Positions 4,213-43,811 of a stretch of 64,000 nucleotides of DNA are shown here, piece after piece. How positions within the stretch are numbered: the first letter of the stretch is position 1; each line of letters opens with the position of its first letter. Location: positions 1,952,001 to 2,016,000 of the forward strand of contig OY969100.1 in the NCBI GenBank assembly GCA_963697895.1, given 5' to 3'. The notes under the pieces were generated by a model, which saw only the letters and a program-made list of their open reading frames with translations, had not been told where the DNA came from and made no database searches. This DNA comes from an uncultured Methanomicrobiales archaeon. Lineage in GTDB: Archaea; Halobacteriota; Methanomicrobia; Methanomicrobiales; Methanospirillaceae. The position numbers and the translations under genes are program-made.

Positions 4213-4285
4213 GCCGCCATAACTCAGTTGGTAGAGTGGCTGGCTGTTAACCAGCATGTCACAGGTTCGAGTCCTGTTGGCGGCG
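4213..4285 (+). tRNA. tRNA-Asn (GTT)
   Basis: GCCGCCA acceptor stem, anticodon arm CTGG-CTGTTAA-CCAG, T-loop GTTCGAGTC. Confidence 0.97.
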
Positions 4286-4298
4286 CTAGTGAACTTTT

Positions 4299-4373
4299 GG
4301 GCCCGTAGCTTAGTCTGGTTAGAGCGCCCGGCTCATAACCGGGCGGTCATGCGTTCGAATCGCATCGGGCCCA
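4299..4373 (+). tRNA. tRNA with CAT anticodon, most likely tRNA-Ile2 (agmatidine-modified C34, reads AUA)
   Basis: Cloverleaf with CCCGG-CTCATAA-CCGGG; acceptor stem GGGCCCG identical to, and body very similar to, tRNA-Ile(GAT) at 16368-16441. Confidence 0.9.
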
Positions 4374-5460: not shown

Positions 5461-5476
5461 TATACCCATATCCTAT

Positions 5477-5784
5477 GGGGACTAGCCCGGGTGGTTCGGC
5501 GTCACCTGTTACCCGAAACCGTCGGTATGCGGGAGGCGAAGTTTGAAGAAGGCCGTTACGAGCTGTCGGATACGGTTGTGTCCTGACGAAGAAACCTCGT
5601 CCCATGAGGCCGGTGGACAGGCATCAAAATCCCGGAGGGGATGGCGACCTGCTGTTGCGGGTACCGGTTGAGGCCCGGAAGGGAGCAGACTTACCGCAGA
5701 CATTCGGCGCCCATGGGGTTGCGGGGCGGAGGAGGGGTGCCTCTGTGATGACAGTCACGTGCGGTCGACCGATAACGCGTCCCC
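5477..5784 (+). ncRNA. ffs: Archaeal signal recognition particle (7S) RNA
   Basis: ~308 nt; ends pair (GGGGAC 5477 / GTCCCC 5784); helix-8 motif GGCCCGGAAGGGAGCA; Alu-like 5' domain. Confidence 0.92.
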
Positions 5785-5797
5785 AATGGTTATTCTC

Positions 5798-36670: not shown

Positions 36671-36853
36671 TTTACACCTCACAATTTTATAACACGTTAC
36701 TATACCACCGGGGAAATATAAACGTTTTGAAAATTTTCTTTCTATGCTCTCTGTTCAGCGGAGCGCGTGCATTTGGGGTGATATAGGAGATGTGGCGGGA
36801 TCCAGCCGATGTTAACGAAAAGTGTTTTATGTCTCCCCGCACAATGCTCTCGT

Positions 36854-37258
36854 ATGAAGGATGGGCTCCTCACGGATCGCCAGAAAGAAGTACTCCGCTA
36901 CAGGAAACAGGGGATGACCCAGCAGCAGATTGCGGATATCATCGATACCTCGAAGGCGAACGTCTGCACGATCGAAAAATCGGCAATGGAAAACATCAGA
37001 AGAGCTCGTGACACGCTTGAATTCCTTTATACTCTGGATGCGACCCATCTCTGCACGATACAGGCCGGTACCGATCTGCTGGACGTCCCTCCTGTAGTAT
37101 ACCAGGAGGCGGAACGCCATGGTATCAAGGTGAAATACGATACCATCTCACTCATCAATAAACTCCGCGAATCAGCGCCGGAGCGATTCAGAGCCAGACA
37201 AGTCAGGGAGAATGTCGATGTTTACATTAATGACGAAGGTGATCTCTATTTCGGATAA
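36854..37258 (+). CDS. tfx: Tfx family DNA-binding protein
   Basis: LLTDRQKEVLRYRKQGMTQQQIADIIDTSKANVCTIEKSAMENIRRA. Confidence 0.9.
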   Translation: MKDGLLTDRQKEVLRYRKQGMTQQQIADIIDTSKANVCTIEKSAMENIRRARDTLEFLYTLDATHLCTIQAGTDLLDVPPVVYQEAERHGIKVKYDTISLINKLRESAPERFRARQVRENVDVYINDEGDLYFG

Positions 37259-37300: not shown

Positions 37301-37307
37301 TTTATAT
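37301..37307 (+). promoter_or_regulatory. Candidate TATA box for the long leader / ribosomal protein operon
   Basis: TTTATAT in an AT-rich stretch just upstream of the structured region. Confidence 0.5.
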
Positions 37308-37350
37308 CCGAATTTAACTAATAATAATGGAAGCCTATATGTGGTTAACG

Positions 37351-37873
37351 GCAGGGGCTCCACAATCAGGATGATAATTTCCGCATGGTGGCTCTCGAGA
37401 GGGATTCCTGCATGTGGATTCATCCGGATGTGCTCTGTTTCCGTGACCCGTATGGTCCACCCCCCGTAAAATCGAACGGGGGTTATACCGAGAAGAAGTT
37501 GTGAATTGTTCACAACGGGCTGAAGCGCGGAATCTGATCAGGTACGCAGGGTGGACGTTGATGAAAACGAGCCCGTACAGAGCGTCCGAGTCAGGATCTA
37601 TTCAAGAGACTGGTAGTCTGGTATAATCCAGGGCAGTGGTGGAACCACATACATGATATGCGGTCAACACTTCTTCATCCGGGTACGGATGGCGGGGTGA
37701 CTGGCCGGGGTATGGGTATTTCAACAGAAAGCGGTTTCGGTTCAGTATTACGCGAGAATTATCGCGGTAATCTCGGCCTCCCTATATGAAACGGGAGAGA
37801 ACAGAAACAATGGAATCGGCCGGATATCGGCTGATTCAGATAACAGTGGATAGTGTGCTCATAAAAAAGCACA
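37351..37873 (+). ncRNA. Candidate large structured RNA / 5' leader of the rpl3 operon
   Basis: No credible ORF; more than ten complementary segment pairs found by eye, nested long-range helices and K-turn-like GAUGA/UC(C/U)GA motifs. Confidence 0.6.
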
Positions 37874-37890
37874 AGAGGAATGATTGAAGC

Positions 37891-38904
37891 ATGCCAAAAA
37901 TTAACAGGCCACGCAGGGGTTCCCTTGCATTCAGCCCGCGGAAGCGTGCAAAGAGTCCGATCCCGAAATATCAGTCATGGCCGGTATTCGAAGGGGCACC
38001 GATGCTGCAGGGCTTTGCCGGGTACAAAGTGGGAATGACGCATGTTATCATGGTGGATGACCATAAGAACAGCCCCACCGAGGGAAAGGACATCATGGTA
38101 CCGGTTACCGTAATCGAAGTGCCGGCAATGAAAGTCGCCGCAATCCGGGCTTATACGAAGGATACGTACGGGAAACGCCCGCTCACTGAGATCTGGTCCG
38201 ATCAGATCGATCCGGAACTCTCGCGTCGGATAACCGCCCCGAAAGAATATGATCCTACCCATGCACGTGAAGAGATCCAGAAAAGCATCGCAAGCGGATC
38301 AGTTGTTGAATTGTGTGCATTGATGTATACTCAGCCGGGTTCAGTGACGGGAATTCCTAAAAAAGTTCCGGATCTCATGGAGATCAGGGTAGCCGGAGGG
38401 TCCCTCGATAAGCGGTACGAATTCATTTCAGGGCTCCTCGGAAGAGAAGTAAGCCTGAACAACGTCATTTCGATGGGTGCATATGCCGATATCACCGCAA
38501 TTACGACTGGGAAAGGGACTCAGGGCCCGGTAAAGCGATGGGGAGTGGCGCTTCGGAAGCGCAAACATTCCCGCGGTGGAAAGGAGCGACATGTAGGTAC
38601 TTTAGGACCGTGGAACCCTCACCATATCCGTTGGCAGGTACCCCAGATGGGACAGATGGGGTATCAGCAGAGGACAGAGTTTAATAAAAGGATCCTGAAA
38701 ATCGGAGAAGATGGAGCGGATATTACCCCGGAAGGTGGATTTCTCCATTACGGGACTGTGAAGAATCCGTATGTCCTGATCAAGGGTTCCGTACCCGGAC
38801 CGGTGAAGAGGCTTGTGCGGATTCGACCTGCAATGCGTCTGGGAGAACATGTAGTGCGTGCTCCGGTTCTCGAATTTGTGAGTACACAGAGTAAGCAGGG
38901 GTGA
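37891..38904 (+). CDS. rpl3: 50S ribosomal protein L3
   Basis: [46 protein letters not shown]. Confidence 0.98.
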
Positions 38905-38910
38905 TCAGGT

Positions 38911-39657
38911 ATGAAAGCACAAGTTAGGACACTCGACGGGAATATCACGCGTGAGATTCCGCTTCCGGCAGTATTCGAGGAGGAATACCGACCGGATCTC
39001 ATAAAGAGAGCGGTCATTGCGCTACAGAGTACCCGGAGACAGCCACATGGCACCGACCCCTTTGCCGGAATACGGTCTTCGGCAGTCGGATGGGGGAGCG
39101 GGCGCGGGGTATCCCATGTACCACGAATCAGGAATGGATCGCGGGCTGCAAAAGTACCACAGGCAAAGGGGGGCAGGGCAGCACACCCCCCTCTTACCGC
39201 GAAGATTCTTATCAGACATATTAACAAGAAGGAAAAACAAAAAGCGCTCCGATCAGCAATAGCCGCAAGTATATGTGATGAATTAGTGAGAGGCCGGGGC
39301 CATGTCTTCGAAGGAGATGTCCCTGTCGTAATCGAAGACCGTTTCGAAGAGCTCTCCCGGACCAGCGAAGTTATTGCGGCACTCTCGGCTGCCGGTGTCT
39401 ATGGGGATGTTGAACGGGCCAAGTTGAGTAAAAAAGTGCGGCCAGGTCGTGGGAAGATGCGGGGGCGCCGGTACCGTCAGCGGAAGAGTCTGCTAATCGT
39501 CACCGCCGATAAACCACTCCGTGCAGCCCGGAATCTTGCGGGTGTCGATGCGGTCACAGTCGATGAGCTGAATACGGAACATCTGGCACCGGGAACTCAC
39601 CCCGGGAGACTCACGGTGTGGACAGAGAGTGCATTGATGCGGCTGGAGGGGAGATGA
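38911..39657 (+). CDS. rpl4: 50S ribosomal protein L4
   Basis: RPDLIKRAV, WGSGRGVSHVPR, HLAPGTHPGRLTVWT. Confidence 0.98.
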   Translation: MKAQVRTLDGNITREIPLPAVFEEEYRPDLIKRAVIALQSTRRQPHGTDPFAGIRSSAVGWGSGRGVSHVPRIRNGSRAAKVPQAKGGRAAHPPLTAKILIRHINKKEKQKALRSAIAASICDELVRGRGHVFEGDVPVVIEDRFEELSRTSEVIAALSAAGVYGDVERAKLSKKVRPGRGKMRGRRYRQRKSLLIVTADKPLRAARNLAGVDAVTVDELNTEHLAPGTHPGRLTVWTESALMRLEGR

Positions 39658-42434: not shown

Positions 42435-42715
42435 TTTCGCCCCAGAACGTCATACGGCACGAACTGATCGGCCTTGACGTTCTGGTCGTCCATGCCAGCA
42501 ACCCGACACAGGAAGGGTTTAAGGGCCGGATCATCGATGAAACCAGAAATTTGCTGATCATTGAAGGAGGATGTGGCGTGCGGAGGATTCCCAAAAGGAT
42601 GAGCATCGTTCGCGTTACGCTTCCGGATGGCAGATTGGTCGAGGTGGATGGCTCTGTGCTGGTGATGGCCCCTGAAAGGCGAATCACCGTCCAGATAAAA
42701 AATAGAGGTACATAA
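42431..42715 (+). CDS. rnp1: Ribonuclease P protein component 1 (Rpp29/Pop4)
   Basis: [26 protein letters not shown]; canonical position. Confidence 0.94.
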
Positions 42716-43041
42716 TGGCAAAAAATATCGGTTTGAACGTCCAGCAGCCTGAAGAGGCATGCAATGACGTTAATTGTCCGTTTCACGGCACTTTACCGGT
42801 GCGCGGCCAGGTGATCACCGGCAAAGTCGTGAGCGATCACATGATGGAAACGGTCGTTGTCGAGCGTGACTATCTCCACTTTGTAAGTAAGTACAACCGG
42901 TACGAGAAGCGGAGTTCCCGGTTCCATGCCCATAGTCCTCCGTGTCTGCACGCGAAGACCGGGGATATGGTGAAAATTGCTGAATGCAGGCCGCTTTCAA
43001 AAACGGCAACCTTTGTCGTGGTGGAGGTGGCCCGGTCATGA
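42715..43041 (+). CDS. rps17: 30S ribosomal protein S17
   Basis: [27 protein letters not shown]. Confidence 0.98.
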
Positions 43042-43436
43042 AGGCAAAACAGTCAAAAACCCCCCGGGCACTTGCAACGGGAACGCGGCTAATCTGCGCC
43101 GATAACACCGGCGCACGAGAGGTCCAGATCGTTTCTGTCTTTGGATATCATGGAGTAAGGCGCCGGCAGCCGAAGATGGGACTAGGAGATCTCGCCACCG
43201 TGAGCGTAAAGAAAGGAACCCCGGATATGCGGCGTAAGCTGGTCCGGGCTGTTGTCATCCGGCAGAGAAAGGAAATCCGGAGACCGAACGGGCTCCGGGT
43301 GTCGTTTGATGACAATGCGGTCGTGGTCGTTGATGAAAAGAATGAACCCAGGGGAACAGAGATTAAGGGACCTGTTGCCCGTGAAGTGGCAGAACGGTTC
43401 CCGAAACTCGGGACCATGGCCACAATCATTGTATGA
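43038..43436 (+). CDS. rpl14: 50S ribosomal protein L14
   Basis: [28 protein letters not shown]. Confidence 0.98.
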
Positions 43437-43445
43437 GGGGAGTAC

Positions 43446-43811
43446 ATGGTACGAATTGTCAGCAAACAACCAAGGAAACAGCGAAAAGCACGTTATAATG
43501 CACCCGCTCACCTCAGGAGCAGGTTCCTCTCTGCACCCCTCTCGACCGTGCTCAGAGATCAGTACAAGAAACGGAGTCTGCGGGTTGTGAAGGGAGATAC
43601 CGTAAAGATCCTCCGTGGTGAATCGGTCGGAACAGAGGGGATGGTTGATCTGGTCGATACGAACAAATCCCGAATTGTTGTTCAGGGGGTCTCCATACCG
43701 AAATCAGATGGTACCGAGATGCCAAGGCCGGTGCATCCCTCAAATGTCGAGATCACCAAGCTAAACCTGAAAGACAAGCGTCGGATGGAAAAACTCGGGG
43801 AAGGTGTCTAG
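43446..43811 (+). CDS. rpl24: 50S ribosomal protein L24
   Basis: SKQPRKQRK, KGDTVKILRG, HPSNV. Confidence 0.98.
   Translation: MVRIVSKQPRKQRKARYNAPAHLRSRFLSAPLSTVLRDQYKKRSLRVVKGDTVKILRGESVGTEGMVDLVDTNKSRIVVQGVSIPKSDGTEMPRPVHPSNVEITKLNLKDKRRMEKLGEGV

Follow-up and report, generated by a model that had tools for sequence, protein, structure and literature searches.

A conserved RNA core within the putative relic of a SPOUT methyltransferase gene heading the rpl3 operon of Methanomicrobiales

What occupies the 632 nucleotides (nt) between tfx (36809-37258) and rpl3 (37891-38904) in the 64,000-nt stretch of DNA analyzed here (the window), which comes from the genome of an uncultured Methanomicrobiales archaeon? 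The initial annotation, made from the letters of the DNA alone, had noted that this gap contains no credible open reading frame (ORF) and had proposed a single structured RNA of about 540 nt, starting behind a TATA-like TTTATAT and matching no RNA family. We confirm the lack of a credible frame, the longest ORFs reaching 72 amino acids (aa) on the minus strand and at most 43 aa on the plus strand, and the TATA-like motif (37301-37307) turns out to be conserved in relatives. As far as the DNA can tell, rpl3 is indeed preceded, on its own strand and after a conserved TATA box, by a conserved structured RNA that exceeds typical archaeal leaders in length by far. Two parts of the proposal fell: only about 200 plus 30 nt of roughly 560 nt are conserved, and the core corresponds to the Rfam family RF03135, which is above its cut-off in 11 of 20 relatives, so that the gap is not a new RNA class. 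Our best explanation, which we regard as probable, is that the gap is the relic of a SPOUT methyltransferase gene with a selected RNA core, which would now be transcribed from the old promoter as a leader of rpl3 and may serve feedback by a ribosomal protein (r-protein).

Gene decay between tfx and rpl3

A few relatives retain an intact gene at the position of the gap. In locus L045 (family f4), a 1081-nt gap holds an intact 285-aa ORF (locus positions 114-971) on the rpl3 strand, which scores 190 bits on PF02598 (Methyltrn_RNA_3) and matches MT0001 (1K3R) at E = 1.8e-35 and also human C9orf114, and loci L006 and L008 (f2) likewise keep an intact SPOUT ORF, giving the synteny tfx-[SPOUT]-rpl3. 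The window still carries nucleotide homology to the codons of this gene: 37485-37574 is 76% identical to those of L045 (E = 2e-9) and 76 to 77% identical to those of L045 and L006 over 93 aligned columns (E = 2e-9 and 1e-10, respectively), and 37590-37613 is 87.5% identical to those of L045. With its orthologous position and this residual homology to a PF02598 gene, the gap is, on the evidence of the alignments, an eroded relic of that gene, which we place at 37327-37890 (plus strand), the stretch that would now be the 5' leader of rpl3. A decayed SPOUT methyltransferase gene was precisely what the initial annotation had named as speaking against an RNA; synteny and codon homology show that such a gene stood here, and its decay does not refute the RNA, since selection on pairing can be read from the relatives after loss of the frame (see below).

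The decay is general in the order. Only 5 of 121 genomes, from three genera of f2 and f4, gave a PF02598 match, and a six-frame search of the genome of the window found no match above the Pfam threshold of 27 bits. When the L045 protein was compared with 53 gaps by tblastn, only aa ~100 to 180 could be recognized outside the three intact loci, weakly and split over frames; in the decayed gaps, nothing recognizable is left of the N- and C-terminal thirds, the core is kept across six families, and in most decayed copies stop codons interrupt every one of the three frames of that core. The gaps of 48 decayed loci measure 488 to 989 nt (median, 638). In the SPOUT protein, the retained segment falls in the central part, about aa 100 to 175 by alignment. 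According to Tkaczuk et al. (2007, PMC1829167), the SPOUT fold of COG2106 proteins contains an inserted OB-fold domain, and the retained segment is presumably this insertion. The Haloferax member, HVO_2565, has been predicted to be a 23S rRNA m3U methyltransferase (Grosjean et al. 2008, PMC2584109).

The setting is stable throughout the order. L3 was located in 118 of 121 genomes, and tfx, the upstream neighbor on the plus strand (PF14601, TFX_C, 111 bits), precedes rpl3 in all 40 upstream regions that were fetched, which cover all six families, whether or not a SPOUT gene lies between them. At the DNA level, the region occurs once in its own genome and in 12 of 40 relatives, always upstream of rpl3 (with tfx upstream in 10 of the 13 loci with DNA matches), and the matching block always corresponds to about 37485-37576 of the window.

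The RF03135 core and selection on base pairing

An Rfam search at gathering thresholds gave no match in the gap; in the whole window, its sole matches were an archaeal SRP RNA (173 bits) and six tRNA genes (5475-5786, 4213-4373, and others). Below threshold, RF03135, the L4-Archaeoglobi r-protein leader, matches 37534-37594 on the plus strand with 27.1 bits (E = 0.0062), and the orthologous site scores at or above the cut-off in the 11 relatives mentioned above (34.7 to 58.8 bits), with E < 1 in 13 of the 20 rpl3-upstream loci. The family was described by Eckert and Weinberg (2020, PMC7247131), who list it for the Archaeoglobi upstream of rplC, rplD, rplW, rplB, and further genes. The match in the window, which is on the same strand as rpl3, precedes the ATG of that gene by 297 nt and shows the family architecture, with an outer CUGA/UCAG helix, an inner helix, and a GGGU...GCCC hairpin with an internal loop. 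By orthology, the core of the gap is to be assigned to RF03135, a known although borderline Rfam family. RNase P RNA was ruled out as the identity of the gap, since its 207-bit match lies at another place in the genome.

Conservation extends beyond the Rfam motif. A core profile built from 14 seed sequences matches 52 of 53 gaps, including 38 of 39 gaps outside the seed, the sole miss being L055, and the part of the relic that is kept comprises about 200 nt (≈37435-37635) plus a 3' block (37747-37776), separated and followed by variable filler (about 37640-37745 and 37780-37870). We aligned 42 of the 50 decayed copies, dropping L055 and seven copies with partial profile coverage (L020, L033, L040, L042, L044, L053, and L054). 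On the plain MAFFT alignment, RNAalifold returned 14 pairs only, with variable helices misaligned by a column or two; because of these shifts, a hand-drawn structure and an alignment-free test of helix P4 were used. Pairs were counted in reliably aligned columns only (P2, P3, and both parts of P5; 23 pairs). Standard pairs fill 94.7% of the cells, versus 33 to 46% when the partners are slid by 1 to 3 columns, a control that is biased in favor of the structure because the latter was drawn from the same sequences. Both sides have changed in 8 pairs, and none of 500 shuffles reached the observed covariation score. In the P4 test, the 5' strand of each copy was set against the 3' strand of the same copy and against those of the 40 other distinct copies: cognate duplexes averaged -9.21 kcal/mol versus -5.64 kcal/mol for noncognate ones, and none of 10,000 permutations was as low, a result that is inflated by the relatedness of the copies. 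The same test on 34 distinct intact-gene sequences gave -9.58 versus -8.44 kcal/mol, again with none of 10,000 permutations as low. Moreover, hairpin loop lengths differ by 1 to 4 nt between close relatives, in numbers that are not multiples of three, which fits an RNA and not a coding sequence (CDS), and U-G and G-U pairs occur at several positions, which points to the plus strand only. The unpaired or junction nucleotides CUGA, GGG, GCC, and UCAG are invariant. Conservation and covariation in relatives, by which the initial annotation had proposed to judge its RNA, are both found, and the compensatory changes across the order show, in the aligned sequences, that selection acted on the RNA once the coding frame had gone.

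The comparison of relatives gives the following anatomy for the copy in the window, all on the plus strand. Hairpin P0, CCCCCGU/ACGGGGG (37461-37482), is replaced in relatives by a hairpin of different sequence at the same position. The long-range helix P1 joins block A, CCGAGA (37488-37493), to UCUCGG (37771-37776) and is present in the minimum free energy (MFE) fold of the window itself; 26 of the 50 decayed gaps carry exact copies of the two blocks, and L016 and L019 have UAUGAGU/ACUCAUA in their place. Hairpin P2, GUUGUGAA/UUCACAAC (37498-37516), has comparative support: of its 7 pairs, 4 have changed on both sides, and 90.8% of cells are paired. It is followed by GGGCUGA (37517-37523). 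The junction homologous to RF03135 (37530-37599) consists of P3, GAAUCUGA/UCAGGAUCU (37530-37538 with 37590-37599); P4, GGUACGC (37541-37547) with GCGUCC (37582-37587), the helix of the cognate test; and P5, GGGU..CGUU (37549-37559) with AACG.GCCC (37566-37574). Its third hairpin, P6, is absent here. Downstream lie the conserved block K, UUCAAGAGAC in the window and UUCGCGAGAC in the consensus (37601-37610), and hairpin P7, CUGG-UAUAAU-CCAG (37618-37631), where relatives also have a hairpin, often with a UGCACRC loop. Hairpin N, AUUACGCGA/UCGCGGUAAU (37747-37771), leads into block O, UCUCGG, the 3' strand of P1; in an alignment of 33 gaps, a hairpin of unrelated sequence stands directly 5' of UCUCGG, and N has the weakest folding signal. 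Mean z-scores against shuffles over the 42 copies are -2.42 for P0, -4.18 for P2, -1.17 for P5, -3.42 for P6, -1.55 for P7, and -0.64 for N. Two further pairings were tried and rejected: that of block K (UUCGCGAGAC) with block M (UCGCGGGU), for which L011 and the window show mismatches with no compensation, and that of block O (UCAAUC) with the rpl3 initiation region (GAUUGA), which fits f1 and fails in f3 and f4.

All 15 complementary pairs listed in the initial annotation exist in the DNA at the positions given there. Relatives uphold CCCCCGT/ACGGGGG (P0), GTTGTGAA/TTCACAAC (P2), and, less firmly, ATTACGCGA/TCGCGGTAAT (N). They contradict GGACGTT/AGCGTCC, as GCGUCC pairs with GGUACGC in P4 and GGACGUU belongs to the P5 hairpin, and they contradict in part GAAGAAG/CTTCTTC, which overlaps the CCGAGA block that pairs with UCUCGG. 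The other listed helices lie in stretches that cannot be aligned between relatives.

Folding energy, which had also been suggested as a yardstick, is less telling. The plus strand of the gap has an MFE of -209.2 kcal/mol, which none of 100 dinucleotide shuffles attained (z = -5.26), and 22 control windows of equal length elsewhere in the window have a mean z of -1.20 (standard deviation, 1.44). However, the minus strand of the gap reaches -4.31, and one control, 43000-43560, reaches -5.03 (with mononucleotide shuffles), about as low as the gap, so that folding energy alone does not single it out. This control lies inside r-protein-like ORFs (42715-43041, 42984-43436, and 43446-43811). Folding energy by itself is thus weak evidence, and it is the comparative evidence that sets the region apart.

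RF03135 inside the SPOUT gene across the phylum

In L045, the RF03135 match (locus positions 502-589) lies inside the SPOUT ORF, and the same holds for most of the phylum. Among 151 sampled genomes, 96 have a single RF03135 match each, and 86 of these matches are above the cut-off. In all of the 30 best loci, the match lies within an open frame (275 to 465 aa from stop to stop) that holds a SPOUT-like ORF of about 270 to 300 aa; among 16 further loci from other families, it is inside an intact SPOUT ORF in 14, with L3 just downstream in all 16. Outside the order, RF03135 is therefore intragenic in 44 of the 46 phylum loci examined, L105 and L106 being the exceptions. The control genome, Haloferax volcanii, has an intact PF02598 gene with an RF03135 match. 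By family, the motif and the gene coincide almost perfectly outside the order. Both are present in families f8, f10, f13, f16 to f19, and f21 to f25; in f9, RF03135 was found in 3 and PF02598 in 4 of 4 genomes, and in f14, in 11 and 9 of 15 genomes, respectively. In f20 (G163 and G257), PF02598 is present and RF03135 unmatched in both genomes; hence, at the search sensitivity used, the SPOUT gene can lack RF03135. The RNA occurs without the gene only in this order and in part of f14.

This part of f14 includes L105 (genome G172, about 940-1680), which is an independent and more recent case of SPOUT gene decay: no open frame is left, the RNA core is kept, and six collinear nucleotide matches link the locus to an intact CDS of the same genus, the best of them (90.6%) over the RNA core. 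Like the window, L105 has lost the third hairpin. Upstream of its gap, the open frames look unrelated to tfx by eye, no tfx search having been made there. In L106 (G186), the SPOUT gene is in two pieces in different frames, with one TGA inside, and in G158, G174, and G214, it likewise gives two Pfam or tblastn pieces; a frameshift, an early pseudogene, a contig break, or a sequencing error may lie behind these four split genes.

The intact genes themselves bear a trace of the RNA. Among 44 of them, synonymous codon identity, i.e., the share of codon pairs for one amino acid that are identical, amounts to 0.593 in alignment columns 121-180, which include RF03135 (columns 131-166), versus 0.462 in the rest (Mann-Whitney p = 1.4e-4), and of 249 sliding windows, this one comes out on top. 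Because the pairs are not independent, we regard this as support for, not proof of, a constraint at the RNA level.

We propose tentatively, and with slightly more doubt than confidence, that RF03135 is not a classical leader but a regulatory RNA embedded in the CDS of the rRNA methyltransferase gene heading the rpl3 operon, which has outlived its host gene, the carcass being kept as a ~560-nt leader only for the sake of the RNA. Our literature search, which did not extend to supplements, found no paper on the intragenic location of RF03135, its survival after gene loss, or the extra helices of the order. In the set examined, the stages run from the intact gene through a recent pseudogene (L105) and an old relic (the window) to complete loss (f11 and f15). 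For the status of RF03135, the natural loss of the host frame is of value in that it removes coding constraint as an explanation, and the covariation persists. For annotation, a "leader" that lies in a gene in most of the phylum affects both the label and the mechanisms that are plausible, action on elongation, coupling, or decay fitting an intragenic RF03135 better than start-site masking. Haloferax volcanii is genetically tractable, and synonymous mutations in its intact gene could separate the function of the RNA from that of the protein. If the proposal is true, this would be a clear natural case of a CDS turned into an untranslated region (UTR) around a preexisting intragenic riboregulator, and r-protein synthesis would be tied to an mRNA that once encoded an rRNA-modifying enzyme.

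Expression, proposed function, and known systems

The ancestral SPOUT/rpl3-operon promoter seems to be still in place. The TATA box TTTATAT (37301-37307) starts exactly 28 nt before the conserved block GGAAGCC (37329-37335) in 22 decayed gaps, and the same layout precedes the intact SPOUT ORFs of L045 and L008. The usual archaeal distance from TATA box to start places the transcription start near GGAAGCC, and no run of 4 or more T occurs in 37327-37890; from the conserved promoter and the missing T runs, we infer both this start and cotranscription with rpl3. In L002 (G021), a GC-rich hairpin (CCACCGG...CCGGUGG) followed by a U7 run lies in the leader upstream of the UCGCGUGU block and looks terminator-like; close relatives lack it. 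An upstream ORF from a conserved AUG after GGAAGCC was considered and rejected, this AUG being absent in L002, L005, L047, and others. At the 3' end, the rpl3 translation initiation region, GAGGAAUGAUUGAAGCAUG (37875-37893), is kept as AGGAUUGAUUGAAACAUG across families, and rpl3 is followed by an ORF (38911-39657) that is presumably rpl4, judging from the usual operon order and the initial annotation.

We propose the following model. In most of the sampled genomes of the phylum, a PF02598 SPOUT gene (COG2106, MT0001-like) stands directly upstream of rpl3, with a folded RNA, RF03135, inside its CDS. Nearly all Methanomicrobiales, the genome of the window among them, have lost the reading frame, and the RNA segment and its neighbors have been kept for their base pairing, namely, hairpins P0, P2, and P7, the P3/P4/P5 junction, and the long-range CCGAGA/UCUCGG closing helix. 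Transcription of the relic probably still starts at the old SPOUT promoter (TATA at 37301), resulting in a ~560-nt 5' leader for rpl3-rpl4 and the genes downstream. The element would bind a trans-acting factor, for which an r-protein encoded by the operon is the most economical candidate and also the published guess, L4 being suggested by analogy. Such binding may adjust output through RNA stability or elongation and not by masking the ribosome binding site, since the ~300 nt between the two make start-site masking unlikely, and elongation, decay, or processing fit better.

Several observations weigh against this explanation. The copy in the window is the weakest and most diverged of its family: its RF03135 score lies below the gathering cut-off of 34.5 bits, and its score with the core profile is the lowest among the full-length f1 matches; 27 model positions of the third, variable hairpin are reduced to 4 nt, so that the window is the sole exception to the presence of P6 in 41 of 42 aligned decayed copies, and there is an A-C mismatch in P3 as well as a deviating block K. 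For 37455-37782, the fold based on homology (-114.9 kcal/mol) lies 7 kcal/mol above the MFE (-121.9 kcal/mol), and only 29 of its 55 pairs are present in the MFE structure. Neither RF03135 nor PF02598 was found in f7, f11, f12, f15, and f26 (0 of 37 genomes for each), and five rpl3-upstream regions from f7, f11, and f15 (gaps of about 70 to about 555 nt) gave no profile match, from which it follows that the RNA is dispensable in some lineages. RF03135 itself is rated "?", i.e., a borderline candidate, by Eckert and Weinberg (PMC7247131), who propose its ligand by analogy ("Prior"), L4 being the known bacterial one. The element lies about 300 nt from the rpl3 ribosome binding site. Finally, blastn-short against the rrn operon of the same genome gave only words at chance level (best E = 0.16, in a nonconserved loop), a weak test of mimicry, and RF03135 had no match in this operon at E up to 10, a weak test of structural mimicry; the resemblance to rRNA that is the usual hallmark of r-protein feedback sites is thus missing.

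The latter results would suit a conserved RNA that acts without an r-protein, as a stability or processing element, e.g., through 5' protection or through a cut in the leader that frees the ribosome binding site, an alternative that we consider unlikely. In Methanolobus psychrophilus, r-protein operons have long 5' UTRs (mean, 154 nt), which are processed near the ribosome binding site, with stabilization of the mRNA and activation of translation (Qi et al. 2017, PMC5499594), and both the lack of rRNA mimicry in our searches (blastn-short and RF03135 against the rrn operon) and the distance of the element from the ribosome binding site agree with such a role. However, the invariant CUGA, GGG, GCC, and UCAG and the one junction kept phylum-wide point to a specific partner.

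Release of the domain as an independent, stable noncoding RNA acting in trans, with a merely historical linkage to rpl3, seems improbable. The about 290 nt closed by the long-range helix 37488-37493/37771-37776, which is present in the MFE fold of the window, speak for it, and the DUF171 gene is among the abundant transcripts reported for Haloquadratum (PMC5496347). Against this, each genome has a single copy, which immediately precedes rpl3 in every locus examined, no oligo-T run was found after the domain, no separate promoter was seen, and the element lies within a CDS in most of the phylum.

Still less credible, and to our mind very improbable, is a pseudogene only, in which the similarity would be leftover ancestry and the helices a product of chance or of inherited coding constraint. 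The region is demonstrably a dead gene, one coding control window folds as well (z = -5.03), and some lineages lost gene and RNA together; yet the terminal thirds of the gene have become unrecognizable while its core was kept across six families, loop lengths vary by non-multiples of three, and both the double compensatory changes and the cognate-partner test of P4 contradict neutral decay. That the core still encodes a small protein, e.g., an OB-fold remnant of the SPOUT protein, can practically be dismissed: open stretches of 74 to 173 aa overlap the core in some copies and tblastn finds weak matches to aa 100 to 180, but most decayed copies have three-frame stops in the core, the tblastn matches jump frames, and the 41-aa ORF of the window (37501-37623) has no Pfam match.

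The relic with a selected RNA core can be set beside four known systems. Among SPOUT proteins, the nearest counterpart is the PF02598/COG2106 family (MT0001, 1K3R, and C9orf114): the gap sits at the position of the gene and keeps nucleotide homology to its central part, but it has neither an open frame nor a Pfam match, and only the part that folds as RNA has been kept. The second system is the leader of the Escherichia coli S10 operon, which is regulated by L4. The two are alike in being structured RNAs upstream of an operon for L3, L4, L23, and L2, with proposed feedback by a product, but the leader in the window has neither sequence nor structure homology to that of E. coli and no oligo-U attenuator, and its coding origin is without counterpart there. 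It is on this E. coli leader that the L4 label of RF03135 was based (PMC7247131). RF03135 as published shares with the core of the window its position upstream of rplC-rplD-rplW-rplB and its helix architecture (PMC7247131); in contrast, the motif belongs here to a larger group of conserved helices (P0, P1, P2, P7, and N), scores 27.1 bits with a cut-off of 34.5 bits, and lacks the third hairpin. Lastly, the UTRs of M. psychrophilus are likewise long, structured leaders before the r-protein operons of a methanogen (PMC5499594), from which the leader proposed here would differ in being about four times the reported mean length and in having a conserved structure.

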